Assembly (NCBI GenBank): GCA_963771325.1
Contig: CAVYTJ010000002.1
Span: 673,074 to 737,073 of the forward strand
Source: an uncultured delta proteobacterium
GTDB lineage: Bacteria > Desulfobacterota > Binatia > Binatales > Binataceae
DNA length: 64,000 nt
Direction of reading: 5' to 3'
Made by a program: the position numbers and the translations under genes. Of this stretch, positions 3,138 through 43,200 are shown piece by piece (the stretch's first letter is position 1; each line of letters starts with the position of its first letter). The notes beneath the pieces are model-generated. The model worked only from the letters and a program-made list of their open reading frames with translations. It was not told the DNA's origin and ran no database searches.

Positions 3138-6100
3138 CTAATCGCTTAACTCCTCGAGCAGCGCCTTGGCGTCTTTGAGGTCGGCGGTGTCGAAACCCTC
3201 GGAAAACCAGCCGTAGATTTCCGCGAGCATCGCGCGCGCTTCGTCGCGGCGGCCCAGTCGCGCGAGCAGACGCGCAAGGCTCATCACGGCGCGCAGCTCC
3301 CACGACCTGGCTTCCTGCTCGCGGGCGATCGCGATCGCCTGCTCGAAGCAGGTTTGCGCCTGCGCCTCAAATGGGGCTCCGCGGGTCAGCAGCGCCTCGC
3401 CTCTCAGCCGGCACAACTCGGCCGCGCTCATGCGCGCTCCGGTTTGCTCGATGACGTTGAGCGCCTGCTCCGCCGCGCTCCGCGCTTGGTCCGCCAGGCC
3501 CGCTTTGAGATAAGACGAAGCCAGGCCCACGACGACGGCGGCGGCGCCCAGCGCGGATCCCGTCGCGCGGTACGACTCGATGCCGGCCAGCGTTTCCGCG
3601 ATGCCCTCGTCGGTTCGTCCGAGCGCGGCTTGAGCGATACCGCGGTAAGTCGATCCGAGCGCGCTCCAATAGCGGAATCCGTGCTCCATCCCCACCCTGC
3701 GGGCCTCGTCCGCCAGTTGATGCGCGGCTTCGGGATCGCGGCGGCAAAGTTTGAGCATCGCTCCGTAACTGAGGGCAAAAGCCAGGCTCATCGGATGGCC
3801 GAGGTCTCGCGCGCGCCCCAACGCTTCGCCGCTCATCTCGAGCGCGGCGGCCGGATAGCCGAGCAGCCACAACGCCACCGACAAAAAAGAAAGCGAAGCG
3901 ACCCGCGGGTCCTGGGGCATCCCTTTCAACGGCGAAGGATCGTGTATGGCCGCCGCCTGTTCCAGTCTTGCGCGAGCGGCGCGGAATTTTCCGCTGAAGA
4001 GCGACACGGCGCCGCTCGCGAAATTCGCATTCGCTATCATGCCCGAATCACGCGCACGCTCGGCAATTTCGATTAGCTCCATGCTGGTCTGGTCCGCGCG
4101 TCCGAGATCGCGCCGTACCTGATGGAAGGCCCAGGCGAACATCAATGCAGGGAAGTGGAGCACGGGGTCGCCGAGTGCGCCGCTCAGTTCCAGCGCGCGC
4201 CGCGCGGATTCTTCGACTTCGGGCGCCGCATAGCCCTTGTTCGCAACCAGCGATCCGACCAGGGCAAGCCGCAGCTCGACTTCCCGCCGCATCCGCTCCT
4301 GGCCCTCGGGCTCGCGCGCGAGCATTTCGAGCGCGGAATTAAACAGGCTTGCCGCCTCTTCATGAGCGGAGCGCCGTTCCGCCTGCTCGCCGGCGAGCCG
4401 CAGATAGTGGATCGCCTTGCCGGCGTTTCCACTGCGGCTGTAATGGCGAGCGAGATCCGGCAAATGATCGTCGAGCTGATCGGCAAACAGCGCCTCGATC
4501 GCCTGTGCCGTGCGCTCGTGGAGCGGCTTGCGGCGCTCGTTCAGCACCGAGCCATACGCCACCTCGTGCGTGAGCGCGTGCTTGAAGCTGTATTCCACGT
4601 CAGGCAGCGCCGGCTGCTCGTAGATGAACTCGCCGAGCTGCAAATCGCCGAGCATCCGCTCCAGTTCGTCATCCGGCTTGCCGGTGACCCGTCTGACCAG
4701 ACCCAACGGAAACTCCTTGCCCATCACCGCCAGCGTCTGCAGCAGCTCTTTCTCGCCGGCGGGCAGACGGTCGATACGCGAGGCGAGAATCGCCTGGACC
4801 GTCGGAGGGATCCTCAGTTCGTCGAGCGCCTTGGTCAGCTTGAGCGTCCCGTTACGCACCAGGGCTCCCTCGTCGAACAGCACCTGCACGGTCTCTTCCA
4901 TGTAGAACGGGTTACCCTCGGTCTTGTCGATAATCAGCCCGCGAAGCGGTTGCAGCGCGACGTCGTCGCCGAGCAAGGCCGTCAGCATTTCCCCGGCGCT
5001 CTCGCGCCCCAGCGGATCCAACCGAAGCTGCGCGTAATGGCTTTTGTTGCTCCAGTTGTGCCGGTACTGCGGCCGATAATTCACCAGCAACAGCACGCGC
5101 GCGTTGGCAATCGCATCGACCAGCAGGTCGAGCAGCGCCTGGGTCTCGTTGTCGATCCAGTGCAAGTCCTCGAACACGACGATCAGCGGCCGGTTTAGGC
5201 TCTCGCGCAGCAAAATCCGCTTGATCGCCTCCAGCGTCCGCCGCTGGCGCACTTGTCCATCCATCTGCGCCAGCGCGCCGGCCGTTTCTTCCACGCCCAG
5301 CAGCGCAAACAGGTACGGCAGGGAGTCTTCCAGCGCGCGGTCGAGCATCATCACCTTGCCGGCCATCTTCTCGCGCCGTTTGCGCGCATCGTCGTTGGGC
5401 TCAATCTCGAAGTAGTTGTTCAGCAACTCGATAACCGGAAGGTAGGCCGAGGCCTTGCCGTGCGAGACCGAGAATGTTTCCAGCGTCAGGCATCCGCTCT
5501 GCGAGGTCATCTTGAATTCGTAGAGGAGCCGCGACTTGCCCAGCCCGGCCTCGCCCATCGCCGCGACGACCTGCCCGTGGCCCTTCTTCACCAGTTCGAG
5601 CGCGTGGCGCATCGCGGCCATCTCGCGCTCGCGGCCGACGAATTTCGAAAGGCCGCGGCCGGCCGAGCGCTGCAGCCGCGTGCGCAGCGATCCAAGTCCG
5701 GTCACTTCGTAAACGTTGACCGGCTCGTTGACGCCCTTGATGCGTGACGGTCCGAGGGCGCGGAAGAAAAAGTAGCCGTCGCACAGCCGAAACGTCGCTT
5801 CGCTCGCGACCACGGTGCCGGGCTCGGCCAGGGTTTGCATCCGCGAGGCCAGGTTGGCCGTATGGCCGATAGGTGTGTACTCGACGTGCTGCTCGCCGGT
5901 CTGAATGGGGCGCACTACCACTTCGCCGGTGTTGAGTCCGATGCGAATCTGGATTGGCGCACGCCCCTCGGCGCGCAAATAGCCGGCGAGCTTTTTGATC
6001 TCCTGCTGCATCCGGAGCCCCGCCAGCAGTGCGCGCTGCGGATGGTCTTCGTGGGCCACGGGAGCGCCGAACAACGCGAAGATGCCGTCGCCGGTGGATT

Positions 6101-6506
6101 GCACGACGTAGCCGTCGTAGCGATGCGCAGCGTCGATCATCAGCTTCAACGCCGGATCGATCACGCGACGAGCGTCTTCGGGATCAAGGTCCTCCATGAG
6201 CTCGGTCGAGCCCTTGATATCGGCGAACAGCGCGGTGACGGTCTTGCGTTCGCCTTCGATCTCCGCAGCCGGTAAGCCTGCCGCGATCACGCTAATCGAG
6301 GCGGGGGCCTTGCCTGGGGCGGACTGAGCGGCCGGTGTAGGAGTGCCGGCGGCTCCTTGCAGGGGTGCGGCGCACTCTCCGCAAAATCGCGCCGCAGGCG
6401 AGTTGTCAAATCCGCACCGTGAGCAGCGCCGCCTGAACGGAGCAGCGCACTGCTCGCAGAACTTGAGCCCTTCCGGATTTTCCGCCCCGCAAGCTGAACA
6501 GTGCAT
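3138..6506 (-). CDS. double zinc ribbon / class III adenylate-guanylate cyclase (CHD) / STAND AAA_16 ATPase / TPR protein (paralogue 1 of 3)
   Basis: N-terminus has two CxxC...CxxC ribbons (MHCSACGAENPEGLKFCEQCAAPF..CSRCGF..CGECAAPL). CHD motifs TALFADIKGST and VVQSTGDGIFALFG. Walker A GEAGLGKSRL and Walker B VVFEDLHWID. Long TPR-like C-terminus ending YGWFSEGFDTADLKDAKALLE. Confidence 0.9.
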   Translation of the reverse strand: MHCSACGAENPEGLKFCEQCAAPFRRRCSRCGFDNSPAARFCGECAAPLQGAAGTPTPAAQSAPGKAPASISVIAAGLPAAEIEGERKTVTALFADIKGSTELMEDLDPEDARRVIDPALKLMIDAAHRYDGYVVQSTGDGIFALFGAPVAHEDHPQRALLAGLRMQQEIKKLAGYLRAEGRAPIQIRIGLNTGEVVVRPIQTGEQHVEYTPIGHTANLASRMQTLAEPGTVVASEATFRLCDGYFFFRALGPSRIKGVNEPVNVYEVTGLGSLRTRLQRSAGRGLSKFVGREREMAAMRHALELVKKGHGQVVAAMGEAGLGKSRLLYEFKMTSQSGCLTLETFSVSHGKASAYLPVIELLNNYFEIEPNDDARKRREKMAGKVMMLDRALEDSLPYLFALLGVEETAGALAQMDGQVRQRRTLEAIKRILLRESLNRPLIVVFEDLHWIDNETQALLDLLVDAIANARVLLLVNYRPQYRHNWSNKSHYAQLRLDPLGRESAGEMLTALLGDDVALQPLRGLIIDKTEGNPFYMEETVQVLFDEGALVRNGTLKLTKALDELRIPPTVQAILASRIDRLPAGEKELLQTLAVMGKEFPLGLVRRVTGKPDDELERMLGDLQLGEFIYEQPALPDVEYSFKHALTHEVAYGSVLNERRKPLHERTAQAIEALFADQLDDHLPDLARHYSRSGNAGKAIHYLRLAGEQAERRSAHEEAASLFNSALEMLAREPEGQERMRREVELRLALVGSLVANKGYAAPEVEESARRALELSGALGDPVLHFPALMFAWAFHQVRRDLGRADQTSMELIEIAERARDSGMIANANFASGAVSLFSGKFRAARARLEQAAAIHDPSPLKGMPQDPRVASLSFLSVALWLLGYPAAALEMSGEALGRARDLGHPMSLAFALSYGAMLKLCRRDPEAAHQLADEARRVGMEHGFRYWSALGSTYRGIAQAALGRTDEGIAETLAGIESYRATGSALGAAAVVVGLASSYLKAGLADQARSAAEQALNVIEQTGARMSAAELCRLRGEALLTRGAPFEAQAQTCFEQAIAIAREQEARSWELRAVMSLARLLARLGRRDEARAMLAEIYGWFSEGFDTADLKDAKALLEELSD

Positions 6507-6579: not shown

Positions 6580-7296
6580 CTATGGCCTTACTGTCTCACC
6601 CCGGTGCTTTCGATACATCTTGTCTCGCCACGCGAATATCGGGGCGAACGCTGAATTCGAGGTCACCGACGCGGTATACATCGGACGCATCGATGCGGGA
6701 AAAACGAAGAGCTCATCAGCAGGAGGGTTCACCAGCAGAAACATGCTCGCGGTGGTGAGATCGGCCCGGGTGAAAGCATCGCCGACTAAATACTCACGTC
6801 CATCGAGAGCATGTTTGAGTACCGTCAAAATCCGCTCGACCGTGACTTTGGCATGCTCCTCGGCATACTGGGTGTGTTGGTACTTCTGCGCAAAGTATTG
6901 TCCGCCTTGTTGCAATTCCGGCGCGCTCGATCGCAGAAAATGCCCAATGATGAGCATCCGCGCCTGAGGGCCCAGGACCCCGTCCATCAGCTCCTCCCAC
7001 ATCATCACCTGCGCCCGATCTTTCTCGGACTCCGGCATGAGCCGCGGTTGCGGGTGATGCTGCTCAAGCCAATTCAGGATCGCGGTCGAGTCGGGAATCA
7101 CCGTGCCATCAACGAGCAACACCGGGACCTGGGCCTGCCCGGTCAGTTTCTTTACTGCTTCTTCGTCCACCCCGGGCTGGTAGTCCTGTTTTTCATATGG
7201 CACGCCTTTGAAGTTGAGCGCCCATCGAACGCGTTCCGCCCAGGGCGACGCATACATCTGAATCAACTTTGTAGTACTCAACTTTGTACTGCTCAT
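6580..7296 (-). CDS. glutathione S-transferase family protein
   Basis: Thioredoxin-like N-terminal domain with YASPWAERVRWAL...QVPVLLVDGTVIPDSTAILNWLEQ, followed by a helical C-terminal domain. Only 24 bp downstream of paralogue 2 on the same strand. Confidence 0.75.
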   Translation of the reverse strand: MSSTKLSTTKLIQMYASPWAERVRWALNFKGVPYEKQDYQPGVDEEAVKKLTGQAQVPVLLVDGTVIPDSTAILNWLEQHHPQPRLMPESEKDRAQVMMWEELMDGVLGPQARMLIIGHFLRSSAPELQQGGQYFAQKYQHTQYAEEHAKVTVERILTVLKHALDGREYLVGDAFTRADLTTASMFLLVNPPADELFVFPASMRPMYTASVTSNSAFAPIFAWRDKMYRKHRGETVRP

Positions 7297-7320: not shown

Positions 7321-10300
7321 TTAGGACAATTGTTCGATAAGTACCTTCGCGTCAATCAAATCTTTCGTATCAAGACCTTCGCTGAACCATCCGTAGATCT
7401 GCGCGAGCATCTGCCGGGCTTGCTCCTTCTTGCCTTGCTGCTCCCACAACCGGCTCAAGCTCGTCACCGCTCTTAACTCGAACGACTTGGCTTCTTGTTG
7501 ACGCGCAATCTCGATGGATTTACGGAAGCATTCTTCCGCTTCCATTTGGATGGCAGGCTCCGCTTCGACGCCGGAACGCCGGAGGACGAGTTCCCCCTTC
7601 AATCGATGGAGTGCCGCCTCGTTGTAGCGCTGGCCCGTTTTTTCCACTATCGCGATCGCCTCTGCCACAGCAGCCAGTCCTTCCTCGAAGCGTCCCGCTG
7701 TTGCGTATGCCTCCGCCAGGAAACAAAGAAACCACGGTCGGAACAGGCTGGCCCCTGATGCTAACTGGGCGTCCAAACCCTCGCGGATCATCGCAATTCC
7801 TTCCTCTGTTTGTCCCTGCTGGGCAAGTGCGTATCCTCGATACATAGTTGCCTGCGCCAGAAAACTCCCAAATCCTTGCTCCCTGCAGAGCGCGATCGCC
7901 GCCTCCGCTTGTTGCTGGTACGCAGGCCATTCCTTGCGAAGTTGAAGGATTGGAAGTGTGTGCAGCACCGTAAGTGCCAGGCTATACGCGTGAGACTGGT
8001 TGTGAGCCAGGGCGAATGTCTCCCCCATCCTCTTTGAAGACTGTTCTGGATGTCCGAGAAGCTCCAGGATCCACGCTGTCCTGCCGAGGCAAAACACTCC
8101 GGGATCCAGCCCATAGACAAATGTATGAACGTGATGTTTCTGAGGGTCGTACAAGCTGATCGCCCGTTCGAAGTGCTGCAAGGCAGGGATCAGCTTCCCG
8201 AAAAGGAACAGCGAATTTCCCTGCGCCAGATGAGCTTCCACCAGAAGACCAGAGTCTTGCACGCTCTCTGCCAGGCTCACGAGCTGCTGTGCTAGCTCAA
8301 AAGCCGACTGCAACTCTCCCCGTATGAGATGAAAGGATCGCAGACCAAACAACATTGGAAAGAGCCTTGCTTCCTCGCCTGATTGTCGGCCCAACTGGAG
8401 CGCTCGCTCGTAGACTGCCCCTACCTCTGGTGCCCCGTTCCCCTTCGTCGCTATCAGAACCGGACCAAGGATCGTCTGCAGGACCAACTCCCGCTGATCA
8501 CGTTGCGGGCTATTCGGCAAGGTCTTCAACAATTCCAATGCAGTAGTGAGGTATTTGATCGCTTCCGTGTTTGCGGATCGTTCGATAGCTTGTTGCGCGG
8601 CAAGTTGCAGATATTCCAGTGCCTTCAGGCTGCTTCCGCTGCAACTGTAGTGATGAGCCAGCTCTCCGTAGTGGTCTTCTAACCGAGAATTAAAGAGAGC
8701 TTCAATCTGACCTGCCGTGCGTTCGTGCAATTCCTTGCGCCGTTCTCCGAGTAACGAACCGTATGCCACCTCTTGGGTGAGCGCATGTTTGAAGGTGTAC
8801 GCAGATTCAGGAAAGGCAGGCTGCTCATAGATGAATTCGCTAAGTTGAAGGGCCGCAAGCATGCGTTCGAGTTCCTCGTCCGGCTTTCGTGTGACACCCC
8901 TTACCAGTCCGAGCGGGAATTCTTTGCCGATCACGGCGAGCGTCTGCAAGAACCCTTTCTCGTCCGCCGGCAGACGATCGATTCGCGAGGCCAGGATTCC
9001 CTTCACCGTGGGCGGGATGTGGATCTCGGATATTGAGCGGGTGACCTTGACCGCGCCATTGCGGACTAGCGCACCCTGATCGAACAGCGCCCGTATCATC
9101 TCCTCGATAAAAAATGGATTCCCCTCGGTTTTTTCGATGATCAGCCGCTTAAGCGGCCGCAGTTCCACCGCATCGCTCATCAATGCACTCAGCAACTCCT
9201 CGGCGCTCTCGCGCCCCAGCGGATCGAGCCGCAATTGAGTGTAGTACGTCTTACTGCCCCAGCTGTGTGAGTATTCGGGACGGTAATTCACGAGCATCAG
9301 GATCTTTGCGGTGCCGATCGATTCGACGAGCAGATTCAGCAGCGCCTGCGTCTGTTCATCGATCCAGTGCAGGTCCTCGAAGATCACGACCAGCAACTGG
9401 TTGAGGCTCTCGCGCAACAAAATCCGCTTGATGGCGTCCAGCGTGCGCCGACGCCGCAGGTCCGCGGCTATTTGCCCGAGCATCCCCCCTGGCTCCTCCA
9501 CCCCGAGCAGGGCGAAGACGTAGGGCAAGGTATCTTCCAGCGTCCGGTCGAGCATCAGTACCTTGCCGCCGATCTTTTCGCGCCGCCGCCGTTCGTTGTC
9601 TTCAGGGATCAGAGCGAAGTAGTCTTTGAGCAGCTCGATAACCGGCAGATAGGCCGAGGCCTTGCCGTGCGAGACCGAAAAAGCTTCGAGCACCAGGCAA
9701 CTGTCCTGCGCCACGGCTTTGAACTCGAAAAACAGCCTCGACTTGCCCAGCCCCGCCTCGCCCATCGCCGCTACCACCTGCCCGCGCGCGCCTTTAGTTC
9801 GCTCCAGCGCGCGCTTCATTTCCTCGATCTCGCGGTCCCGGCCGACGAATCGCGACAGCCCCCGCCGCGTCGACATCTGCAGCCGCGTGCGCAGCGGACC
9901 CAGCCCTACCAGCTCATAAACATTGACCAGCTCGCTCACGCCCTTGACCCGGGTTGGCCCCAACGTCTTGAACTCGAAGTATCCTTCGACCAGTTTCTGC
10001 GTATGCTCGCTCACCGCGATCGCCCCGGTCGGCGCGAGCGCCTGCATTCGCGCGGCCAGACTGGTCGAATGCCCGATCGGAGTGTACTCGGTGCGATGCT
10101 CGCCGGTCTGAACCGAGCGCACCACCATCTCGCCGGTGTTCAGCCCCACGCGAATCTCGATCGGCGCGCGCCCCTCCTCGCGCAGCTTGCTTGCGTACCG
10201 CTTGATGTCCTCCTGCATCTTGAGCGACGCGAGCAGCGCCCGCTGCGGATGGTCTTCGTGCGCGACCGGCGCTCCGAACAGCGCGAAGATGCCATCCCCG

Positions 10301-10746
10301 GTCGATTGCGCCACATAGCCCTCGTAGCGATGCACCGCGTCCATCATCAGCTTGAGCGCGGGATCGACCAGCCGGCGCGCCTCCTCCGGGTCGAGGTCCT
10401 CGATCAACTCCATCGAACCTTTGATATCGGCGAACAGGGCGGTGACCGTCTTGCGTTCGCCGTCGATCGCCATCGACGTTTCTGGCAGCTCCGCCGTGAC
10501 GCGAATTTCGGGAGCGGGTGCTGTTACCGGCGGCGCCTTGGGTGAAACAGCTTGAGCATTGCCAGCCAGCGCGCCCCCGCATTCGCCGCAGAAGTCCTCG
10601 CCGGGATCGTTCGAAGCACTGCATTGTGGGCACCGGCGCGCAAGCGAAGAACCGCATTTCGCGCAGAATTTGCGCCCCTCCCGATTTTCTGCTCCGCACT
10701 TCGCGCAGCGCATTTTTCCATTTCCCGTCTTGTCAGCGCGGTGCAC
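7321..10746 (-). CDS. double zinc ribbon / class III cyclase / STAND ATPase / TPR protein (paralogue 2 of 3)
   Basis: Same architecture as 3138-6506: CAKCGAEN..CAKCGS, TALFADIKGSMELIEDLDPEEARRLVDPALKLMMDAVHRYEGYVAQSTGDGIFALFG, GEAGLGKSRL, FEDLHWID. C-terminus ends YGWFSEGLDTKDLIDAKVLIEQLS. Confidence 0.9.
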   Translation of the reverse strand: MHRADKTGNGKMRCAKCGAENREGRKFCAKCGSSLARRCPQCSASNDPGEDFCGECGGALAGNAQAVSPKAPPVTAPAPEIRVTAELPETSMAIDGERKTVTALFADIKGSMELIEDLDPEEARRLVDPALKLMMDAVHRYEGYVAQSTGDGIFALFGAPVAHEDHPQRALLASLKMQEDIKRYASKLREEGRAPIEIRVGLNTGEMVVRSVQTGEHRTEYTPIGHSTSLAARMQALAPTGAIAVSEHTQKLVEGYFEFKTLGPTRVKGVSELVNVYELVGLGPLRTRLQMSTRRGLSRFVGRDREIEEMKRALERTKGARGQVVAAMGEAGLGKSRLFFEFKAVAQDSCLVLEAFSVSHGKASAYLPVIELLKDYFALIPEDNERRRREKIGGKVLMLDRTLEDTLPYVFALLGVEEPGGMLGQIAADLRRRRTLDAIKRILLRESLNQLLVVIFEDLHWIDEQTQALLNLLVESIGTAKILMLVNYRPEYSHSWGSKTYYTQLRLDPLGRESAEELLSALMSDAVELRPLKRLIIEKTEGNPFFIEEMIRALFDQGALVRNGAVKVTRSISEIHIPPTVKGILASRIDRLPADEKGFLQTLAVIGKEFPLGLVRGVTRKPDEELERMLAALQLSEFIYEQPAFPESAYTFKHALTQEVAYGSLLGERRKELHERTAGQIEALFNSRLEDHYGELAHHYSCSGSSLKALEYLQLAAQQAIERSANTEAIKYLTTALELLKTLPNSPQRDQRELVLQTILGPVLIATKGNGAPEVGAVYERALQLGRQSGEEARLFPMLFGLRSFHLIRGELQSAFELAQQLVSLAESVQDSGLLVEAHLAQGNSLFLFGKLIPALQHFERAISLYDPQKHHVHTFVYGLDPGVFCLGRTAWILELLGHPEQSSKRMGETFALAHNQSHAYSLALTVLHTLPILQLRKEWPAYQQQAEAAIALCREQGFGSFLAQATMYRGYALAQQGQTEEGIAMIREGLDAQLASGASLFRPWFLCFLAEAYATAGRFEEGLAAVAEAIAIVEKTGQRYNEAALHRLKGELVLRRSGVEAEPAIQMEAEECFRKSIEIARQQEAKSFELRAVTSLSRLWEQQGKKEQARQMLAQIYGWFSEGLDTKDLIDAKVLIEQLS

Positions 10747-10916: not shown

Positions 10917-11462
10917 TCACTTCACGTCTATTTCCATGCGCATCCAGGGATGGATGCAGCATTCGAAGAGATGCTTGCCCTTCGAAAGACCGGTGATATC
11001 AAGGTGGCTACCCTGGAGGATTCGCGTCCTGGCCACCGCGATGTTTTTAAAGCCACCGGAGCACTCGGGAATGACGCTTGTTGCGCTGCCAGGATTGAGC
11101 TGCGGGATGAATCCGTTACCGAACTCCTTTACCTCGGTAAAGGTGTGCGGCTCACCGCCTTGGTCGACTATGGAAACGATGGTCCCCCGCTTGATCGTCA
11201 ACTTGTCGGGTTCGAAGTCCCAGCCCGGATCGGGAGTTCCAGCCTCCGCCAATGCAAATAGCTCGGACAGTGTAGTAAATGCTCCGAGCGTGACGTTTTT
11301 GCAAAAGTCCGGGCCCACCGCCGCGTTGAACGTGACTGGATCACATTCGTCCAAGGCCACGATCTGGGCCAGACTAGGTGATTTATCTTGCGCACCCGCG
11401 TGCGTCGCGCCAGCGAACATCAAGCAGCCGACGAATAAACCCACTACCACGGTAATTTTCAT
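10917..11462 (-). CDS. secreted cupredoxin (amicyanin/plastocyanin-like type 1 copper protein)
   Basis: Signal peptide MKITVVVGLFVGCLMFAGATHA. Candidate T1Cu ligands: His in GGEPHTF and the C-terminal FECCIHPWM (Cys-x2-His-x2-Met, the amicyanin CTPHPFM spacing). Confidence 0.6.
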   Translation of the reverse strand: MKITVVVGLFVGCLMFAGATHAGAQDKSPSLAQIVALDECDPVTFNAAVGPDFCKNVTLGAFTTLSELFALAEAGTPDPGWDFEPDKLTIKRGTIVSIVDQGGEPHTFTEVKEFGNGFIPQLNPGSATSVIPECSGGFKNIAVARTRILQGSHLDITGLSKGKHLFECCIHPWMRMEIDVK

Positions 11463-11693
11463 CTTGATTCTTCCTCCTCGTCGATCAGATTAACGTTGGT
11501 TCCACGGCATTCCTCTGGCCAAAAAACCACGCGCAATTCGCAATTTTTAAGGCTCACCTCCTTTGTCGCGCGATTGTGAGTTTGTTGCGTTTTGTGCGAG
11601 TATCGCAGCCATCCGAGCGCGAAGTCCTGATCGAATTCGAACATTTCTCTTACAACTTGCGCCCCATCCGACCGCTCGGAGGAGCTAGCAGAG

Positions 11694-13428
11694 ATGGCGG
11701 CAGAACATGCAGTCCGCTTCGGTCCCTATCGGCTCGACGCCTCCGAGGAGCAGGTCTGGCGGGGCCAACAGCTGGTGAAGCTCACGCCCAAGAGCTTCTC
11801 CGTTCTGCGCTACCTCGCGGAACGTCCAAAGCGCCTAGTCACCAAGGAGGAACTGTTCAGGGCACTGTGGCCGAATACGGCGGTTAGCGATGCGGCATTG
11901 ACAAGATGCATTCGCGAGATTCGGGAGGCGCTCACCGACGATGCGCGCTCGCCCCATTACATCGAGACCGCGCACCGGCGTGGGTTTCGCTTCGTTGGGC
12001 CCCCGGCCGAGGTGCGCCAGCCGATCCCGCGAACGAAGACAAAGTATGCGAAGAGTGGAGGCGTTAACATCGCCTATCAGGTCGTCGGCGAGGGCCCGGT
12101 CGACCTGGTGATGGTGCCCGGGTGGACCTCGAACGTGGAGGGCTGGTGGGAGCTACCCGCCTCGGCGGCCTTCTATGAACGGCTGGCGACCTTCTGCCGC
12201 CTTATCATTTTCGACAAGCGGGGAACCGGCATGTCGGACCCCTTTCCCCTCGATCAACCGCCCACGCTCGAGCAGCGGATGGACGACGTGCGAGCGGTCA
12301 TGGACGCAGCGGGCTTCGAACGGGCGGTATTGTTCGGATATTCCGAGGGTGGCCCGATGTCCCTCCTATTTGCCGCCACCTACCCGGAGCGGACGGTCGC
12401 GCTCGTTCTGCACGGGACGTTCGCCAAGCAGGAATGGCATGACACATTTGCGGCGAGGCTCGCCGAAACGCCCGAACAACTCGCGGCGCTGGTCGAGGAG
12501 CGATGGTCCGAGGGCTGGCCCGGCCTCGATGTATGGGCGCCGACCTTCGCGGACAACGAAGAGAACCGACAGGCGTTCGCCCGCTTCATGCGGCAAGCGG
12601 CGAGCCCCGCGACCGCCGCGGCGATCCTACGGATGTCGTGGGAGATCGACGTGCGGCCCATTTTGCCCGCGATCCGCGTGCCGACCTTGATTCTCCACCG
12701 CCGCGAAGAACGAGCGTTTGGCGTGGCGCATGCGCGATATCTCGCCGATCACATTCCTGAGGCGAAGTATGTCGAGATGCCCGGCGTGGATCACCTCCTG
12801 TACGCTGGCGACCACGAGGCGATAGCGGAGACGGTCGAGGAGTTCCTGACCGGTGCCCGACATGCCCGCAAGGCCGGCCTTCTCGCCACGGTGTTGCTCA
12901 TCGACGTCGTGGATTCGGCGGGACGAGCCTCCGAGCCCGGCGACCGCGCCTGGCGAAGTCTCCTCGGGCGCTACCAGGAGTTGGTTCGAAGGGAAGTGAG
13001 CCGTTTTCGTGGACGCGAGGCGGCAGGTGATCGCTGCGCGGCGACGTTCGACGGCCCGATCCGAGCGCTTCGCTGTGCGCTGAGGCTGCGTGAGGCCCTT
13101 CGGGAGTCAAGACTTCCAAATCCGCATGAGTGTACACACCGGAGAATGCGAATTCCAAAACGATCGGCTGAGCGGCACTACGGTTCGCATCGCGGCCCAG
13201 ATTCTCGCCAAAGCCGCGCCGGGTGAGATCTGGGTATCGGGTACCACGAAGGATTTGGTACCCGGCTCGAGAATCGAGTTTGAGGATCGAGGACTACACG
13301 TCTTAGGCGATATCCCACGACAATGGCCTTTGTTCATCGTGAAATCGACGGATGACGCGGCAACCCGTCGATCACGGTCTCTTCCTCCTTCTCGCTCACA
13401 GCTCTACCGGACCGCTCGGCGCGGATGA
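11694..13428 (+). pseudogene. winged-helix (OmpR/CadC-type) + alpha/beta-hydrolase + class III cyclase-domain protein, interrupted by a +1 frameshift near 13096-13105 (possibly an assembly artefact)
   Basis: Residues 1-105 VRFGPYRLD...LTPKSFSVLRYLAERPKRLVTKEELFRALWPN...RRGFRFVG form a trans_reg_C domain. This is followed by an alpha/beta-hydrolase fold (GYSEGG nucleophile elbow). CHD start LLIDVVDSAG...GDRCAATFDG is in frame 0, and the CHD continues as IRMSVHTGECEF...GTTVRIAAQ in frame +1 (ORF 13090-13428). The shift site is at a CCC/GGG run. Confidence 0.75.
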
Positions 13429-13655: not shown

Positions 13656-15713
13656 ATGTCGAACTCGGCTCAATCGTTGTCCGACGAACGGCTGGTTTCC
13701 GGAGTCCATCTGGTAGGCAGTATCCCGCTCGCCGATGCCGACCAGGTGTTTCGGCGGGTGACTGCGGATCTCGGCGACCGGTTAAGACGCATCCCCGATG
13801 GCGAGACCGGTCCGCGAGCGGACTGGATCATCTGGCAGTATCCCATCCTCAGTTCGCGGCCGGAGTTCGAGATCTGCCCGCCCGGGCCGGACCATTATCG
13901 GGCGCTACCGAGGCTGCGGCTTGGTGAAGGCGTCGCGGCCGCGGATATTGCCTTCGAGCGGCTCGGCTACGCGCAGACCGCGATCGCGTCTTACCGCCTG
14001 TTCGCGACGCTCAAGCGCGACGGGATCGTGCCGGTGCATTGCCGCTTTCAGGTATCGCTGCCCACTCCGCTTGCGCCGATCAGCGCGTTCGTTGCGAGCG
14101 ACGCTCAAAGCGCCGTCGAGCCAATTTATGAAGCGCGCATGCTGGAAGAGGTGGCGCTGATCATACAGGCGATCCCCGCCGATCAACTGGCTATTCAATG
14201 GGACACGAACGTCGAGTTTGCGATGCTCGAAGGCTCGGTACCCGCATGGTTCGACGACGTGCGCGCGGGCATCATGGAACGGCTGTTGCGCTTGAGCCGC
14301 CACGTGCCGCCCGCGGTCGAACTGGGTTATCACCTGTGTTATGGCGACGGGCGCCATCGCCACACCGCCGCGAAAGACGCGCGCAAGCTGGTTGAAATCG
14401 CCAACGCGCTGGCGGCGAGTCTGGACCGGCCGCTCAACTGGCTACACATGCCGGTGCCCGTCAACGCCGCGGAATCCTATTTCTCGCCGATGGCCGCGCT
14501 GATGCTACGTGCGGAAACCGAGCTTTACCTCGGAGTAATCGATCCGTCGGACGGCCTGGGGGGCGCGCTGCGGCGAATCAGGATGGCGCGGTCTTTTGTG
14601 GACGGATTCGGCGCCGCCACCGTCTGCGGATGGGGCCGGCAGCCGGAGCGGATCGTTCCTGAACTGCTCAAGCTGCACGCCGAGGTCGCGCGGCCGGTGG
14701 TGTCGCGCTCGGATCAGCACGCGTCGTTCGTATGGCCGAGCGGCTTCGATCGGATACCCGACGAAGATTGGACGCATCAGCCGGTGGACCGTTTCGGGCT
14801 GGCCTATGACAAGGTGGAGCGTCACAGTTGGTATCGCAACCTCGATCCGATCGTCGAGGAACTCGCCGGCAATCTGAAGGACGGCGACATCATGGTGGAT
14901 TATTCGGGCGGAACCGGAATTCTCCTCGATCGTCTCAAGTTGAGAATTTTCGACCGCGCGGCCGGCATTTTGATAGCGGACAGTTCGCCGCGTTTTTTGC
15001 GTGTCGCGCACGAGAAATTCGCCGGCGATCCGCGCGTTGCTTTCCGGCTCCTGCGCTTCCTGAAAGAGGAGAAGCGCGTGCAGCGAATCAACGAAGTGTT
15101 GAGCCCGCCGCTCCTTCAGCGCGGAGTCGACACCATCGCGTGCACCAATGCGGTCCATCTCTACACGGACCTGGAGGAAACCGCTTCCGCGTGGGCTTCC
15201 GTTCTGCGGCCCGGCGGCAAGTTGTTCATCAATTCCGGAAATATCCGCAACCCGCGCGCCAAGCCCAATCAGTGGATCCTGGATGAAACGGTGTGGGTCA
15301 TAAATGACCTTGCCGAGGGCATCGTCCGCAGCGATCCCCGCTATGCGGCGTATCGGCCGGTTCTCGATGACGGTGAGCGCATGGAGGCGCACAGCGCGTT
15401 TAGAAATCGCGTGTTCGTTGAACCGCGGCGGCTTGATTTCTATCTGAACACGCTCCGGAGCGCAGGTTTTCAGATCGAGGGCGTGACGGAGCACAATATC
15501 CGGGCCCGCGTCGACGACTGGTACGAATTTTTGACCGCATACCATGACGCGGTGCTCGGATGGGCCGGCGGAAATGAGAAAGTCGACGGACGGGCGCCCA
15601 CCGCGGAAGCGATCGCGGACCGCCTCTCCCTGATTCGGCAGGCGATAGATACGTTGTTCGGCGGCCGCACGGAGTTCGACGCCTGCTGGACCTATATCAA
15701 CTGCGCGCGCTGA
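13656..15713 (+). CDS. 685-aa two-domain protein: uncharacterised N-terminal ~430 aa plus C-terminal class I SAM-dependent methyltransferase domain
   Basis: C-terminal half carries methyltransferase motif I (IMVDYSGGTGILLDRL) and downstream Rossmann-fold elements. I do not recognise the N-terminal region as any family. Confidence 0.7.
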   Translation: MSNSAQSLSDERLVSGVHLVGSIPLADADQVFRRVTADLGDRLRRIPDGETGPRADWIIWQYPILSSRPEFEICPPGPDHYRALPRLRLGEGVAAADIAFERLGYAQTAIASYRLFATLKRDGIVPVHCRFQVSLPTPLAPISAFVASDAQSAVEPIYEARMLEEVALIIQAIPADQLAIQWDTNVEFAMLEGSVPAWFDDVRAGIMERLLRLSRHVPPAVELGYHLCYGDGRHRHTAAKDARKLVEIANALAASLDRPLNWLHMPVPVNAAESYFSPMAALMLRAETELYLGVIDPSDGLGGALRRIRMARSFVDGFGAATVCGWGRQPERIVPELLKLHAEVARPVVSRSDQHASFVWPSGFDRIPDEDWTHQPVDRFGLAYDKVERHSWYRNLDPIVEELAGNLKDGDIMVDYSGGTGILLDRLKLRIFDRAAGILIADSSPRFLRVAHEKFAGDPRVAFRLLRFLKEEKRVQRINEVLSPPLLQRGVDTIACTNAVHLYTDLEETASAWASVLRPGGKLFINSGNIRNPRAKPNQWILDETVWVINDLAEGIVRSDPRYAAYRPVLDDGERMEAHSAFRNRVFVEPRRLDFYLNTLRSAGFQIEGVTEHNIRARVDDWYEFLTAYHDAVLGWAGGNEKVDGRAPTAEAIADRLSLIRQAIDTLFGGRTEFDACWTYINCAR

Positions 15714-32902: not shown

Positions 32903-34091
32903 TTACGGCTCGATGCGAGCGACGCGGCGCTTGCCGACCTCGAGAATACGATGCTGGCCGGGGACGAAATGGAAATTGATGTCGCTGACAGTCTGGCGGT
33001 CGACGCGCACCGCGCCCTGCCCCACCAGCCGGCGCGCCTCGTTGGTCGAGGCGGCGAAGCCGAGCTGCTTTAGCAACTCGCAGATCCATAGCTCCTCGGC
33101 GATGCGATACACCGGCACGTCCTGCGGCACTTCGCGGCGCTGAAACTTGCTCTCGAAATACTCCCGCGCGTCGCTCGCGGCGTCGCTATCGTAATACTCG
33201 GCGACGATCTCGGTCGCGAGCCGCTTCTTGGATTCCATCGGATGCGATTTGCCGGAGCGGATCGCGGCGAGATCGGCGGGCGCGACGTCGGTCAGGAGCT
33301 CGAAATAACGCGGCATCATCCGATCCGGAATCGACATCAGCTTGCCGAACATGTCACGCGGCGCGTCGGTCAGCCCGACCGCGTTGCCGTAGGACTTCGA
33401 CATCTTGCGCACGCCGTCGAGTCCCTCCAGCAGCGGCATGGTCATGACGACCTGCGGCGGCTGGTTAAATGCGCGCTGCAGCTCGCGCGCGACCAGCATG
33501 TTGAATTTCTGATCGGTGCCGCCGAGTTCGACGTCGGCGCGCAGCGCGACCGAATCATAGCCCTGGACCAGCGGGATAGAGCAGCTCGTGCAGGAACAGC
33601 GGCTGCTGCTCGGCGAGGCGCTTCTCAAAGTCGTCGCGCTCGAGCATCCGCGCCACGCTCAGCTTGGCGGCGATCTCGATCAGGCCGCGAACGTCGAGCT
33701 TGTCCATCCATTCGCTGTTGAAGCGGACTTCGGTCAGCGCGGGATCGAGGATTTTCGAGACCTGGCGCTGGTAGGTTTCGGCGTTGGCGACGATCTGCTC
33801 GCGCGTGAGCGGCTTGCGCGTCTCGGAGCGCCCGGTCGGATCGCCGATCATCGCGGTGAAGTCGCCGACCAGGAAGATCACGGTATGGCCGCGGCGCTGG
33901 AAGTCGCGGAGCTTCTTGAGCGCTACGGAATGGCCCAGGTGCAAATCGGGCGCGGTCGGATCCATCCCGAGCTTGACCCGTAGCGGGCGCCCTTCGCGAA
34001 GCTTGGCCGCCAGCTCATCGCCCGAGATGACTTCGGAGGCGTTGCGCCCCAGCTCCTCGGCCTGCTCTTTCGCGTCGCTCTCTTCCAACAC
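32903..34091 (-). pseudogene. tyrS: tyrosyl-tRNA synthetase interrupted by a single-base frameshift at a GGG/CCC run near 33573-33575 (probable assembly indel)
   Basis: The N-terminal ORF (33555-34091) has HIGH motif [10 protein letters not shown] and ends ...[11 protein letters not shown]. The second ORF (32903-33628) continues ...[31 protein letters not shown] and an S4 domain. Removing one C from tatcccgctgg restores [13 protein letters not shown]. Confidence 0.85.
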
Positions 34092-34098
34092 CTTGCGC

Positions 34099-35412
34099 TC
34101 AGTGCATCAATTGCGTCAGGCCGGTGGGATTCTGGAACTTCGAGATGTTGTCATACTGCGGCGAGTAGCGGTCGGCCCACAAATCCTCGCCATTGGCGTC
34201 GGCGGTGAAGATGTGAGTGGCGTGCTGCTCCTGGAGGTTCCAGTACTGCTCGATGATTCCGCCGCCGAAGTACTGCGGCCCCCACTCCGGATGGAGCCGG
34301 TCCTCGCGCGTGCGCAGCCCGATATTCACCACCTTCCACAGTGCCATGCTCGAGTCGTACAGGTCCTCGTGCACGTTGGCGAAATAGGCCTGGGCGGTGT
34401 ACATGATGCGCTTGCCGTAGCAGTAGCCCGAGCGCATCGACTCGATCCGGCGCACGTCGGTCACCCACACCGGCACCACTTCCCATTTGCCCCACGACGG
34501 CTTCGCCCAGCCAAGCGGCAGATCGTAGTTGTCGGGAAACTTGCCCATCGCGGTGGTCATGTCGACCAGCGCGAGAATATTCTGTTCACGCAGGAACTGG
34601 CCCTCGAACACTGAAGCGCCGCCGTTCCATCCCACTCGCTGATCGTCGTGCGTTGCGTCGCTGTCGAACAGCGGCGCGCATCGCGCCGAGGTCGAAAGCC
34701 GCATCGCCTGGCGCAGCGCCGGGATGAAAACGTAGTCGTCGGGCAGCCGGGTCACGTCCTGCCAGTACAGTGTCAGATCGGCCGAGTACTTCGCTTCCTC
34801 GGGCACCTCGACCATCAGCCATTCGCCGTACCACGCTCCGGTCGAGCCGGGCTCGGTGTGCGAGATGCCGGGGAACCAGTTGTAGGCGAGCTGGCGATAA
34901 TTGTAATCGACGCGAGTGCAGGCCTTGCTGCCGAACTTGTCCATCGTGCAAAACGACGACGGGGTCCCCGAATCGGGCATGCCGACGTAGAGATGGCCGC
35001 CGGGACGAAAGGTGACGTCGGCCGCGATCTCGGTCCCCTTGTCGGGGCCCGACGGATGCGGAAACGGAACGCCGGAGACATAGTTTTCCAGCTTGTAGGC
35101 GCCGTTGGGCAACTTGAGAAAGCGGGTCTGCGCCGAGTACTTCTCCACCGCGTCCCAAAACGGCTTGGGCAGCGGATGGATCGCCGTCAGCCCCACGTCC
35201 ATTTCGACGTCAGGCGGCATCTTCCAATCGACGCTGCCGTCGAATAGCGCGATCATCCCGTCGGGCATGAAGGCCTTGTACTGCTGCCAGTTCTTCATGG
35301 TGATTTTGGTGCCGGGCGGGATGGTGTTCTCCACCGCCCCGGCCATCGCCACACTGAGAAAGCAGAGTGCGAGGCCGATGATTCCAGGCAACAGCTTCCG
35401 AATGCCGTTCAT
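34099..35412 (-). CDS. secreted hypothetical protein (signal peptide; DUF1329-like size and composition)
   Basis: Own ATG at 35412 with a GGAGGG RBS 8 nt upstream. [26 protein letters not shown]... signal peptide. The ORF track fuses it with ctaB only because no stop intervenes in that frame. Confidence 0.6.
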
Positions 35413-35465
35413 CTCGAGGTCCCTCCCTGTTCCAAATCGAGGAAACTCACGCTCCCGGTGTGCGA

Positions 35466-36378
35466 TTAAACACGGTCGAGCACGATTACCAGGAATACGA
35501 TCGGCAAATACAAGAGCGAAGCGAACATCACGCGGCGCGCCGCCGCGGCGGCATTCGGGTTGCGCGCGAGCCGCAGTCCCGAAGGTCAGCATCATCGCGC
35601 CCAGCGCGAGCGCGACCGCCATCGAGATCCACCCGGCGAAGCCCAGCAGCGTGGGCAGCGCGCCCGCCGCGATGAGCGCGATGCAATCGAGCAGGATCAG
35701 CTTGTCCACTGGATTAAGGCGCGGATTACCGCGTCCGCCCGCAAGCGGCAGCATGCTGATTCCGGCGCGCGCGTAGTCGCTCTGGTAAAGCCGCGCAATC
35801 GAGAGCGAATGGGGAAGCTGCCACAGGCACATGATGAGGAACAGGATGAAAGGTTCGACGCCGAGTCTTCCGCTGGCCGCGGCCCATCCGGCAACCGGCG
35901 GCAGCGCTCCGGGCACCGCGCCGACGGCATGGCAAAGCCACGAGACCCGCTTGAGCGGCGTATACGCGAACAGGTAGAGCAGCGCGATTGCGGCGGTCAC
36001 CGCGGCGGCCAGAAAATTCGCCGCCACCCACAGCCAGGCGCATCCGCCGACCGTCGTGACGAGGCCGAAGACCAGCGCCTCGGGCGGGCTCAGGCGTCCC
36101 TCGGGCAGCGGGCGATGCTGCGTTCGGATCATCAGGGCGTCGATGCGGCGCTCGAAATACTGGTTGAGCGCGAGCGTGCCGCCGGCGGCGAGCGCGGTGC
36201 CGAACAGCGTATTCAGCGCAAGCCACAGGTCGAAGCGCTCGGCGCTGCCGAGATAGAAGCCGACCAGCGTGGTCAGCAGAACCATCGCGAGCACGCGCGG
36301 TTTGGTCAGCTCGAGATAGGCCGCGGCGCGCTTGCGCGCGCCGCTCGCCGATGCGAGCGCAACGGCTTCGGCGCTCAT
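35466..36378 (-). pseudogene. ctaB: protoheme IX farnesyltransferase (heme O synthase) with a C-terminal frameshift near 35550-35590 (GC-rich tract; probable assembly indel)
   Basis: UbiA-family motifs YLELTKPRV, NQYFERRIDALMIRTQHRPLP. The conserved C-terminal helix ...RRVMFASLLYLPIVFLVIVLDRV* with TAA stop at 35466 is in the +1 frame relative to the upstream body. Confidence 0.8.
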
Positions 36379-40215: not shown

Positions 40216-43200
40216 CTAACTCAACTTCGATTCGAGCAGCGCCTTCGCGTCTTTCAGGTCGGCGATGTCGAAGCCCTCGGTGAACCAGCCGTAGATCTTG
40301 CCAAGCCTGGCGCGCGCTTCGTCGCGGCGGCCCTGCTGGTCGAGTAACCGAGCGAAACTGGTCGTCGCGCGCAACTCCCACATCCTTGCGCTTTGCATTC
40401 GAGCGATTTCTATCGCGCGCAGCAAAGAGCTTTCGGCCGCGACAAGGTTCCCTTGCGTCAGCCGCGCGACGCCCGCAATGCGGTGAAGTTCCGCCGTGAA
40501 TTGGCGCTCACCCGATTCTTCGGCCTGCCGGAGAGCATCGCTCACGACATCCAACGCCTCATCACAATGCCCGATCGAGCTCAAACCCGCCGCGAATTCT
40601 CCCAGGAACCATGGACCCCCAAGCACTGAACCGAGAGCTCGCCAGGCATCGAATCCCTGTTTGATGGTATCGACTCCCCGTGCCCCCTCTCCACGCTGGA
40701 CCGCGGCGCATCCCATCAATATCTGTGCAAACGCCAGGTAAAAAGCCAGCCCATGCTCGGCGGCCAGCGCCGTCGACGTTCGGCAGCGTTCGATAGCTGC
40801 ATCTGGTTCTCGTCGCAAAAGATGTAACTGTCCCGCGTATATCGTGGCCATGGCCAGCGCTCTTGGATGAGCCAGCACATGCGCCACCTGGACGCAGTCC
40901 AAGACGGTCCTAAGGGCCTGATCTGGATAACCCCGATAGTGTTGAGTCCAAGCCGCGTAAGCTCTTGAGATCATCGCTGGATCATCGACAAAGACCCGAG
41001 AAGGCGGCGTTCCTGGCTTGCACGCGTCGATCGCCAGCGCTAAGCGCTCGGAAGCGGTTTCGATTCGCCCACACCAGAATGCGGTGTCACCTGCGGCGAA
41101 ATTCGCATACGCAAGACGAGTGTCGTCCTTGGATTCACCCACTGATGTGAGAAGTCGCTCTGCCAATGCCTCGGCGTCACGAAGTTCCGCGCGTAGCAAG
41201 TGAAAGACCCACAATCCGGATAAGGCCTCGAAGAGCGCCGAGGTATCCCCGGCTAGCTGGCAAAGCTCAAGCGCCCGCGTGTAGTTCGCGCCAATCTCTG
41301 AAGCACCCTGACCTTTGACTGCCATCAGACTAGGCCCAATCAAAATTCGGAGTCGAATTTCCTGGACTCGATTGCCCTGATCGTCTGGCAGCTCCGATAT
41401 GAGCTCTAAAGCGGTCCCAAGCTGTGCGATGGCGCCGTTGTCGGCGCCCTTGGCAGCGGTCTGCTCTCCGGCTCGAGTGAGATATTCGATGGCCTTCTCG
41501 AGGTTTCCACCTCGGCGATACTGATGAGCGAGCTCCGCCAGGTGATCGTCAAGGCGGTCGGCATAAAGCGACTCGATCGCGGCTGCGGTCCGCTCGTGGA
41601 GCACCCGCCGCCGCTCGCTCAGGACTGAGTTGTAGGCGACTTCCAGTGTCAGCGAGTGCTTGAAGGTGTACTCGGCGTCGGGCAGTGCGGGCTGCTCATA
41701 GATGAACTCACCGAGCTGCAGATCGCTCAGCATCCGTTCGAGCTCGTCGGCGGATTTGTCGGTTACCTTTTTGATCAGTCCGAGCGGGAACTCCTTACCC
41801 ATCACGGCCAGGGTTTGTAAGAGGTCTTTTTCATCGGCCGGTAACCGATCAATACGCGAGGCGAGGATCACCTGCACGGTGGGCGGGATGTTCAGCTCGC
41901 TCAATGGCTTGGTGAGCTTGACCGCACCATTGCGGACCAGAACTCCTTCGTCGAGCAGTACCTGCACGGTCTCCTCCATAAAGAACGGATTGCCGTGGGT
42001 CTTCTCGATAATCAGGCGTTTGAGCGGTTTGAGCGAAGGATCATCGCCCAGAAGCGCACCCAGCAACTCTTCGGCACTCTCCTGCCCGAGCGGGTCGAGC
42101 CGGAGGCGGGCATAGTAGGTCTTGCTGCCCCAGCCGTGACGGTACTCGGGACGGTAATTGAGCAGCAGCAGCACCCGAGCGTTGCCGATCGCGTCGGCCA
42201 TGAGATCGAGTAAGGCTTGGGTTTCGGCGTCGATCCAGTGCAAGTCCTCGAAGATCACGACCAGCGGCTGGTTGAGGCTTTCACGCAACAGAATGCGCTT
42301 GATGGCTTCCAGCGTGCGGCGCCGACGCGCCTGTGCGTCCATCTGGGCCAGTGCGCCGACGGTCTCCTCGACTCCAAGGAGCGCGAAGAGGAACGGCAAT
42401 GCGTCCTCTAACATGCGATCGAGCGTGAGGACTTTGCCAGTGATCTTTTCCCGTCGCCTGCGTGCGTCGTCCTCGGCCTCGATCTCGAAGTAGTTGTTGA
42501 GCAGCTCAATAACGGGCAAATAGGGCGACGCCTTGCCGTGAGAGACGGAGAACGTTTCCAAAACAAGGCATCCACTCTGCGAGGTCGCCTTGAATTCGTA
42601 AAACAACCGTGACTTGCCCAGCCCGGCCTCGCCTATCGCGGCAACGATCTGCCCGTGGCCTTTCCGTACCAGTTCCAGTGCGCGCCGCATCTCCGCCACC
42701 TCTCGCTCGCGCCCGACGAACTTCGTGAGCCCACGCCCGGCCGCTCGCTGCAGCCGGGTTCTGAGCGGGCCGACTCCCGTCACCTCGTAAACGTCAACCG
42801 GCTCACTGACTCCCTTGACGCGAACCGGCCCCAATGCCTTGAACGCAAAGTAGCCCTGACATAAACGATGGGTCGCCTGACTGCTCACCACCGAGCCAGG
42901 GTCGGCCAGCGTTTGCATGCGCGAGGCGAGGTTCGCCGTATGCCCGATCGGCGTGTACTCGATCTGCTTCGCGCCGGTTTGGATCGGCCGCACCACCACC
43001 TCTCCGGTGTTGAGTCCGACCCGGATCTGGAGTGGGGCGCGGCCCTCGGCGCGCAGCCGGCTCGTCAGCCGTTTTATCTCCTGCTGCATCCGGAGCGCGG
43101 TCAACACCGCCCGCTGTGGATGGTCCTCGTGGGCGACGGGTGCGCCGAAGAGCGCAAAGATGCCATCACCGGTCGACTGCACGACGTAACCGTCATAGTG

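Follow-up and report, generated by a model that had tools for sequence, protein, structure and literature searches.

Class III cyclase homology domains (CHDs) act as head-to-tail dimers, OmpR-type winged helices bind repeated DNA sites as dimers, and some alpha/beta-hydrolases (RsbQ, D14, and KAI2) are receptors. The first and the last of these modules are combined in LipJ (Rv1900c) of Mycobacterium tuberculosis, a bifunctional lipase/adenylate cyclase (NCBIfam model NF058673) in which the hydrolase precedes the CHD. The gene described here comes from an uncultured delta proteobacterium (contig CAVYTJ010000002.1, positions 673,074 to 737,073; this whole stretch of 64,000 nucleotides [nt] is referred to as the window), and it has the LipJ order behind an N-terminal winged helix of the CadC/HilA type. 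It probably encodes a one-component cytoplasmic transcription regulator, built from a LipJ-like module and this winged helix, whose reading frame was broken by a likely assembly indel.

As deposited, the gene appears as an open reading frame (ORF) of 510 amino acids (aa) from 11694 to 13226, the final 37 codons of which are out of frame; an exact look-up of this truncated product gave no match. A second ORF in the +1 frame spans 13090 to the TGA stop at 13426 to 13428 and completes the CHD. The ATG at 11694 is preceded by a GGAGGAG ribosome-binding site just on its 5′ side. The features of the gene are as follows.

11694 to 13428, plus strand: whole regulator gene, 577 aa after removal of one T (ORF reading and orthologue comparison)
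11694 to 12008, plus strand: winged-helix DNA-binding domain of the OmpR/CadC/HilA type, aa 1 to 105 (PF00486, NCBIfam, and AlphaFold2)
12039 to 12857, plus strand: alpha/beta-hydrolase domain, aa 116 to 388 (PF00561)
12876 to 13338, plus strand: class III CHD of the LipJ/Rv1900c type, aa 395 to 548, split by the frameshift (phmmer and Foldseek)
13114 to 13115, plus strand: frameshift site, TT versus a single T in every relative, within Leu474 (CTC in the relatives; DNA alignments)
13339 to 13428, plus strand: basic C-terminal tail, aa 549 to 577, plus the TGA stop; clade-specific and predicted to be disordered

The three domains, in this fixed order, form one genuine gene, and purifying selection acts on all three. 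Intact orthologues of 577 to 579 aa were found (P0001, 97% identical in aa; L096, 99.3% identical in nt; L090; and L009), and a search with the conceptually repaired protein returned the homologues P0002 to P0008 at 87 to 94% identity. An AlphaFold2 (AF2) model of the orthologue P0001, made with a 105-sequence alignment, has a mean predicted local distance difference test (pLDDT) score of 86.6 and shows three folded domains with low-confidence linkers at about aa 101 to 115 and 390 to 394. The C-terminal tail, which in the protein alignment is seen only in relatives that are at least 86% identical, has a pLDDT of <50 over aa 554 to 577 of this model. The ratio of nonsynonymous to synonymous substitution rates (dN/dS) within the clade is 0.22 to 0.41 for the CHD, compared to about 0.1 for the winged helix and 0.04 to 0.14 for the hydrolase.

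The winged helix matched the Trans_reg_C model (PF00486) over aa 26 to 100 (E = 4e-18, 65.6 bits against a cutoff of 26.2), its best NCBIfam matches were CadC (aa 5 to 104) and HilA/EilA (aa 23 to 116), and its strands and helices span aa 7 to 100 in the AF2 model. No receiver domain was found among the domain matches of the window protein. The hydrolase matched Abhydrolase_1 (PF00561) over aa 138 to 370 (E = 4e-18, 66 bits against a cutoff of 25.8). Its nucleophile elbow, G-Y-S217-E-G, lies in the GYSEGG at aa 215 to 220 (Ser codon at 12342 to 12344), and the predicted triad is completed by the acid Glu339 (12708 to 12710) and by His367 (12792 to 12794). The triad Ser217-Glu339-His367 is intact as judged by alignment, position 339 being Glu in the window and Asp in most relatives. 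Two sets of relatives were compared: 121 aligned protein sequences (made up of the window protein and the top 120 among 8000 scored matches) and a genome set holding the best 80 loci of at least 596 confirmed stretches, with one genome per species. No triad position was lost from more than one of the 121 aligned sequences, and all three were present in each of the 81 genome-locus rows (80 loci plus the window). The nearest solved structures were the metagenomic esterases 8V16 and 6EB3 (about 1e-16), followed by the 3-oxoadipate enol-lactonase 2XUA, haloperoxidase-type esterases, RsbQ (3e-9), and D14/KAI2 (about 1e-8).

The repaired CHD is 38% identical to the CHD of Rv1900c/LipJ (1YBT; phmmer E = 7.6e-30) and also matched Ma1120 (about 1e-15). 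The CHD of the P0001 model superposed on 1ybt/1ybu with TM scores of 0.86 to 0.90 and a root mean square deviation of 1.4 to 2.0 Å (AF2 and Foldseek). The NCBIfam LipJ model aligned with aa 114 to 547 (E = 4e-104, 348.8 bits, model positions 8 to 447 of 449). This whole-protein score falls well short of the 800 bits set as the equivalog cutoff, and the protein is therefore a LipJ homologue and not an equivalog. The Pfam model Guanylate_cyc (PF00211) gave 13.2 to 17.4 bits on the fragment and the repaired protein (17.4 bits with the second ORF alone), below the gathering score of 21.9, while the relatives P0021, P0047, and P0072 clear this threshold with 25 to 42 bits. This means that Pfam alone would miss the CHD, and its assignment comes from the matches to 1YBT, to the LipJ model, and to the CHD fold. 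An earlier reading of the window, made from its letters and ORFs (the sequence-only reading), had described an OmpR/CadC-type winged helix at aa 1 to 105, an alpha/beta-hydrolase with GYSEGG, and the hydrolase-plus-CHD architecture of LipJ, and the above matches agree with it on all three points. The domain scan of the repaired protein that it had proposed recovered the winged helix, the hydrolase, and the LipJ model, with Guanylate_cyc staying below threshold. Taken as a whole, the observation made there is partly confirmed, and its interpretation is partly supported.

The CHD is split between frame 0 and frame +1, as had been described, but the break is not at 13091 to 13105, where that reading had placed the junction. 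DNA alignment to relatives shows one surplus T at 13114/13115, the window having AGACTTCCAAATC where the relatives have AGACTCCAAATC. Frame 0 holds through LREALRESR (CALRLREALRESR) in the protein alignment, that is, beyond gaggcccttcggg at 13092 to 13104. A repair at gaggcccttcggg is therefore wrong; deleting a C from the CCC at 13097 to 13099 gives REAFGSQDFQIR, which mismatches the orthologues. With the T removed, on the other hand, the translation has 577 aa and runs colinear with P0001. The surplus T is missing from all 12 relatives that cover the site, and 11 of the 12 encode an intact protein of 577 to 579 aa. These relatives are L001 to L008 (98.6% nt identity), L095 (99.5%), L096 (99.3%), L090 (93% aa identity), and L009 (90% aa identity); the absence of the T was read from DNA alignments for L001 to L008, L095, and L096 and from the intact translation for L009 and L090. 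For example, in the eight metagenome contigs that encode P0001, at 98.6% DNA identity, the surplus T is the only gap over the gene, and L096 carries the intact 577-aa gene on a 772-kb contig.

The comparisons make it probable that the frame break is an assembly indel, because tyrS and ctaB are also frame-broken in the window and because there is no decay on the 3′ side of the break. The two other broken genes are as follows.

33555 to 34106 and 32903 to 33658, minus strand: tyrS, split into overlapping ORFs (class I tRNA-synthetase model)
34099 to 36378, minus strand: apparent fusion of ctaB and a DUF1329 gene, 759 aa (UbiA plus DUF1329), with a frame switch near 35577

The two tyrS ORFs cover positions 3 to 139 and 137 to 291, respectively, of the class I tRNA-synthetase model. 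A surplus base at 33573 to 33575 (GGG on the plus strand) falls inside the conserved motif YPLVQGYD, so that the gene reads tatCCCgctggtc where tatCCGctggtc is expected. Pattern scans of metagenomes yielded no close tyrS relatives, and a second pattern gave only unrelated tyrS genes; 14 unrelated tyrS genes read TATCCGCTGGTCCAGGGCTATGA in frame. An essential gene that is broken by one base points to an assembly indel. In ctaB, the frameshift hides the stop codon and leads to read-through into the DUF1329 gene. As read, its match to TIGR01473 is limited to positions 2 to 253, whereas a frame switch near 35577 gives a 303-aa heme o synthase that matches positions 2 to 280 of 281. Other overlapping same-strand ORF pairs (MlaE/ABC, GreA/SIMPL, AsnC/3HCDH, and TGT/QueA) were considered as frameshifts, as were FrdB/C/D, two ADH genes, and MazF/NadA, and all proved to be separate genes.

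As for decay, the inserted T is the sole difference between the window and the intact L096 from 12932 to 13352, the post-shift part of the CHD has a dN/dS of 0.15 to 0.31 versus relatives, and every other indel relative to L001 over 13.7 kb of synteny lies between genes or adds up to a multiple of three. The closest relatives (99.3 to 99.9% nt identity) are long-read-style contigs. One of them, L095 (ENA ERZ25039605 contig_42953, 1038 to 2171), which shares its ENA assembly series with the closest relatives, has the same gene broken elsewhere: two inserted bases that fall near window positions 12784 to 12788 leave a called protein of 377 aa. L009, the species-level genome nearest to the window, comes from Microflora Danica (MFD), whose genomes are Nanopore assemblies (PMC12313526); we infer that the window derives from similar data. 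The sequence-only reading had itself suggested that the shift might be a sequencing error, a view that the private T, the broken tyrS and ctaB, and the separate break in L095 strengthen.

It is unlikely that the gene is a true pseudogene, with the T a real and recent mutation in the strain. In that case, the CHD would end after aa 473, leaving either a winged helix, a hydrolase, and half a CHD or no stable protein. Such a mutation would fit the broken frame of the deposited sequence, the restriction of the insertion to the window, and the weaker constraint on the CHD than on the other two domains. However, like breaks occur in two housekeeping genes of the same 64 kb, a sister long-read contig breaks the gene at another position, and neither further disabling changes nor excess substitutions are seen 3′ of the break. 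Given that an assembly error best explains the surplus T, the organism is likely to produce the full protein of 577 aa.

The canonical cyclase residues were mapped through the Rv1900c and Ma1120 alignments, with the following result.

Metal-binding Asp 1: D302 in Rv1900c; Asp404 in the window, kept
Metal-binding Asp 2: D346 in Rv1900c; Asp446 in the window, kept
Substrate Lys: N342 in Rv1900c; gone in the window in a two-residue deletion (RE--AAGD)
Substrate Asp: D395 in Rv1900c (D157 in Ma1120); Arg491 in the window
Transition-state Asn: H402 in Rv1900c; Arg498 in the window
Transition-state Arg: R406 in Rv1900c; Gln502 in the window

Two of the six residues are kept (signature D, deletion, D, R, R, Q), and the Rv1900c catalytic set of D302, D346, D395, and R406 is incomplete in the window, D395 being replaced by Arg491 and R406 by Gln502. 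The motif RIAAQ, reported before at the Asn-x-x-x-Arg position, is thus found again as Arg498 and Gln502, whereas the specifying Asp, which had been read as Thr, aligns with Arg491. The CHD is degenerate yet not decaying. From its residues, it is likely to be catalytically inactive, although what it appears to lack beyond LipJ itself is only the Asp and the Arg, plus the deletion.

An active bifunctional enzyme-regulator, in which the CHD would make cAMP or cGMP and couple local nucleotide synthesis to DNA binding, is accordingly a poor prospect, less probable than a pseudogene. The metal-binding Asp404 and Asp446 are kept, and Rv1900c is reportedly active without the canonical Lys and Asn, with Asn and His in their places (Sinha et al., 2005). 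Moreover, a winged-helix clade made up of P0047, P0050, P0056, P0061, and P0081 keeps the full D-K-D-D-H-R. The clade of the window, however, has Gln or Glu at the Arg position, Arg at the substrate Asp, and the two-residue deletion in the Lys region; several of its members carry Glu for the first metal-binding Asp; and the Pfam cyclase model is below threshold.

The pattern extends to a whole family. All three domains were present in 105 of the 121 aligned sequences, and about 60 of the best 80 species-representative loci matched from residues 1 to 9 onward and hence include the winged helix. LipJ modules preceded by a DNA-binding domain are thus not uncommon, nor is the architecture unusual, as the sequence-only reading had supposed. 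It had also allowed for there being no homologues with this three-domain order, and the opposite was seen, such relatives filling the top of the search (8000 scored). The best loci belong mostly to Pyrinomonadaceae, Blastocatellia, Vicinamibacteria, Bryobacterales, and other Acidobacteriota, and the clade of the window consists of genomes labelled "uncultured delta proteobacterium." Since relatives of the neighboring cupredoxin carry the label Candidatus Binataceae, the lineage of the window is probably Binatia-like. JGI automatic names read [quoted passage not shown] and a literature search found no publication on the three-domain architecture. The family is a large, uncharacterized variant of LipJ, and the window gene is an ordinary member of it. 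In three relatives of about 910 to 920 aa (P0058, P0062, and P0119), the core of winged helix, hydrolase, and CHD is extended by a fused serine/threonine protein kinase domain.

Within the family, some trends were apparent. First, the state of the cyclase residues follows the architecture. In the genome-locus alignment, the metal-binding Asp pair and the Arg are kept in 17 of 18 sequences without the winged helix, compared to 5 of 63 with it, and the same split by architecture is seen in the 121-sequence protein alignment. The typical signature without the winged helix is D-D-D-K-H-R, which is LipJ-like and is seen, for example, in P0021. Second, in a neighbor-joining (NJ) tree of the hydrolase and CHD region, the degenerate clade of the window is nested in a group that has no winged helix and intact LipJ residues. 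Third, the same tree has a second, large degenerate clade in Acidobacteriota and, finally, a small winged-helix clade with the complete canonical D-K-D-D-H-R. This suggests, and only suggests, that CHD degeneration occurred at least twice, each time in winged-helix lineages, because the NJ tree is without support values and the counts are phylogenetically non-independent.

A mechanism for the regulator can be proposed on the model of better-known proteins. The hydrolase domain would be the input, binding and probably hydrolyzing a small ester or lactone. The CHD would no longer make cAMP and would be retained as a head-to-tail dimerization and allosteric module, through whose dimer the ligand-induced change would be relayed. 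The dimer would also bring two winged helices together on repeated DNA sites, which may be those in the conserved region 5′ of the regulator's own gene. That region is listed here.

11555 to 11693, plus strand: conserved region 5′ of the regulator, candidate promoter or operator (near-invariance among relatives)

The 140 nt before the ATG are nearly invariant among the window, L001, L090, and L009, despite a coding dS of 0.34 to L009. They contain TTGTG-type repeats at about 11572 to 11600 and a 16-nt palindrome, TGATCGAATTCGAACA, at 11628 to 11643. The region is a reasonable candidate for an operator that would serve autoregulation.

Several points weigh against the view of the gene as an intact regulator with an inactive CHD. 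First, the indel verdict weighs sequence comparisons, TT for T is a minimal homopolymer, and a true, very recent frameshift may lie behind the break. Second, the loss of cyclase activity is deduced from residues, while both metal-binding Asp residues are retained and Rv1900c is said to work without two canonical ones. Third, the sensor role of the hydrolase, CHD-mediated dimerization, and the target on the DNA are putative, and neither the ligand nor the regulon is readable from the sequence. Finally, the NJ tree bears no support values, and the architecture counts are not phylogenetically independent. The regulator nevertheless remains the probable reading of the window gene. Its extension to the family as a whole is more tentative: we think it possible, with somewhat more doubt than belief, that these proteins are widespread, unstudied one-component factors in which the hydrolase is a ligand-hydrolyzing receptor and a dead CHD, having degenerated at least twice independently, is a dimerization and allosteric relay.

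Three cyclase genes and a cupredoxin-like gene are further features of the window.

3138 to 6506, 7321 to 10746, and 40216 to 43629, minus strand: zinc-ribbon-CHD-AAA_16-TPR proteins, three paralogues of 1122 to 1141 aa (domain matches)
10917 to 11462, minus strand: secreted cupredoxin-like protein, 181 aa (ligand motifs GGEPHTF ... CCIHPWM)

Each of the three paralogues combines a double zinc ribbon, a class III cyclase, AAA_16, and TPR. Two of them (3138 to 6506 and 7321 to 10746) flank a GST gene and lie 1 to 8 kb upstream of the regulator, and in L090 the orthologous region holds a single such cyclase (1041 aa). The sequence-only reading had taken the gene for a DNA-binding pseudo-cyclase or a regulatory scaffold associated with these adjacent cyclases. 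The LipJ-like pseudo-cyclase without four of six canonical residues stands, and the tie to the adjacent cyclases does not. The gene order 5′ of the regulator is kept in L001 to L004, L090, and L009, all at aa identities of at least 90%. No cyclase gene lies beside the 72 to 75% identical orthologues L089 and L092 to L094, and a tblastn comparison of eight window neighbors against the 80 loci found no CHD-AAA-TPR neighbor at the 79 more distant loci, with synteny only in L009. A linkage confined to relatives of at least 90% identity is what plain synteny would produce and lends no support to a functional tie; the link is no more than recent synteny.

The above bears on the suggestion that the degenerate CHD heterodimerizes with the CHDs of the neighboring zinc-ribbon-CHD-AAA_16-TPR proteins, regulating them or being regulated, as in the mammalian C1/C2 pseudo-heterodimer. 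Class III CHDs are known to heterodimerize with one degenerate site, and both the nearness of the two cyclase genes and the arrangement kept in L001 to L004, L009, and L090 would suit it. Yet such genes are missing beside the 72 to 75% orthologues and the 79 more distant loci, and in the window they are on the opposite strand with the cupredoxin gene in between, which makes this pairing slightly less probable than even an active cyclase. The weakest explanation, that programmed +1 ribosomal frameshifting or transcriptional slippage restores the frame, has nothing beyond the two overlapping frames in its favor and can be dismissed as next to impossible because all orthologues use a single frame without the surplus T and, the site itself not being conserved, there is no conserved slippery or stimulatory element.

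The 181-aa cupredoxin-like protein had no Pfam match. Its family, with 3355 matches, of which the best 120 are 68 to 92% identical, is very abundant and far more conserved than the regulator, and its members are named "plastocyanin" (JGI) or [quoted passage not shown] (NCBI). This divergent gene was considered as a conserved partner of the regulator and rejected: the secreted counterpart of about 180 aa at the 72 to 75% orthologues is not credibly homologous, the identity of 26 to 28% coming from a forced alignment with long gaps. On the other side of the regulator, a gene at 13656 to 15713 (plus strand) encodes a 685-aa protein with a weak C-terminal methyltransferase match. It stands between the regulator and a NUDIX/NrtR-like gene in the window, L001, and L095 to L097, whereas in L009 and L090 it is missing and the NUDIX gene directly follows the regulator; it is a recent gain or loss. 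Small length differences from L001/L002 were also seen upstream. Those at 6331 to 6341 (in the cyclase gene 3138 to 6506) and at 7263 to 7277 are in frame and come to 15 nt each in total, the latter lying at the start of the GST ORF (6580 to 7296) near the junction with the cyclase gene 7321 to 10746. A 1-nt difference at 10887 is intergenic.

For annotation, what might be entered as a "frameshifted pseudo-cyclase" should read as an intact 577-aa regulator, and an indel error about every 20 kb should be assumed for the assembly, those in tyrS and ctaB included. On a wider scale, a large sister group of the LipJ-type hydrolase-cyclase module carries a fused DNA-binding domain; loss of the cyclase catalytic residues is nearly universal there, and the hydrolase triad is never lost. 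The family is thus a clear, testable case of a cyclase domain that would be reused non-catalytically and of a transcription factor whose sensor may be a hydrolase, in a setting of abundant, poorly studied soil bacteria. The finding by itself resolves no open question, and the family-wide link between the DNA-binding fusion and the loss of cyclase residues is the one part worth pursuing.

Four groups of known proteins can be compared with the regulator. The mycobacterial proteins Rv0386, Rv1358, and Rv2488c are CHD-ATPase-LuxR HTH fusions with the CHD at the N terminus, and the CHD of Rv0386 is active. Rv0386-type cyclases and the zinc-ribbon-CHD-AAA_16-TPR proteins of the window likewise combine a class III CHD with signaling or DNA-binding modules, but they differ in domain order and partners, with an N-terminal CHD and no hydrolase. 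RsbQ of Bacillus subtilis and D14/KAI2 of plants belong to the same alpha/beta-hydrolase branch, have a Ser-Asp-His triad, and match with Foldseek TM scores of about 0.8. They set the precedent that a hydrolase can serve as a signal receptor. However, they are distant in sequence, plain esterases and enol-lactonases score better, and they signal via partner proteins rather than a fused DNA-binding domain, and the likeness is a hypothesis about function, not a claim of membership. Like the window protein, CadC, HilA, and ToxR begin with an OmpR-like winged helix, have no receiver domain, and continue into a sensory region of the same chain; whereas they are built otherwise toward the C terminus, the window protein has there a soluble hydrolase-CHD module, with no transmembrane segment or periplasmic sensor in its domain matches or AF2 model. 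LipJ/Rv1900c (1YBT, 1YBU; NF058673) differs in having no winged helix, where the window protein has an N-terminal one, and in retaining N342, D395, and R406 where the window protein has, respectively, a deletion, Arg, and Gln; of the two activities of LipJ, the esterase is putative in the window protein and the cyclase is probably lost. The two nevertheless have the same order of hydrolase and then CHD, are colinear over aa 114 to 547, and have superposable CHDs that are 38% identical, and the non-canonical residue at the catalytic Asn position is common to the whole lineage.

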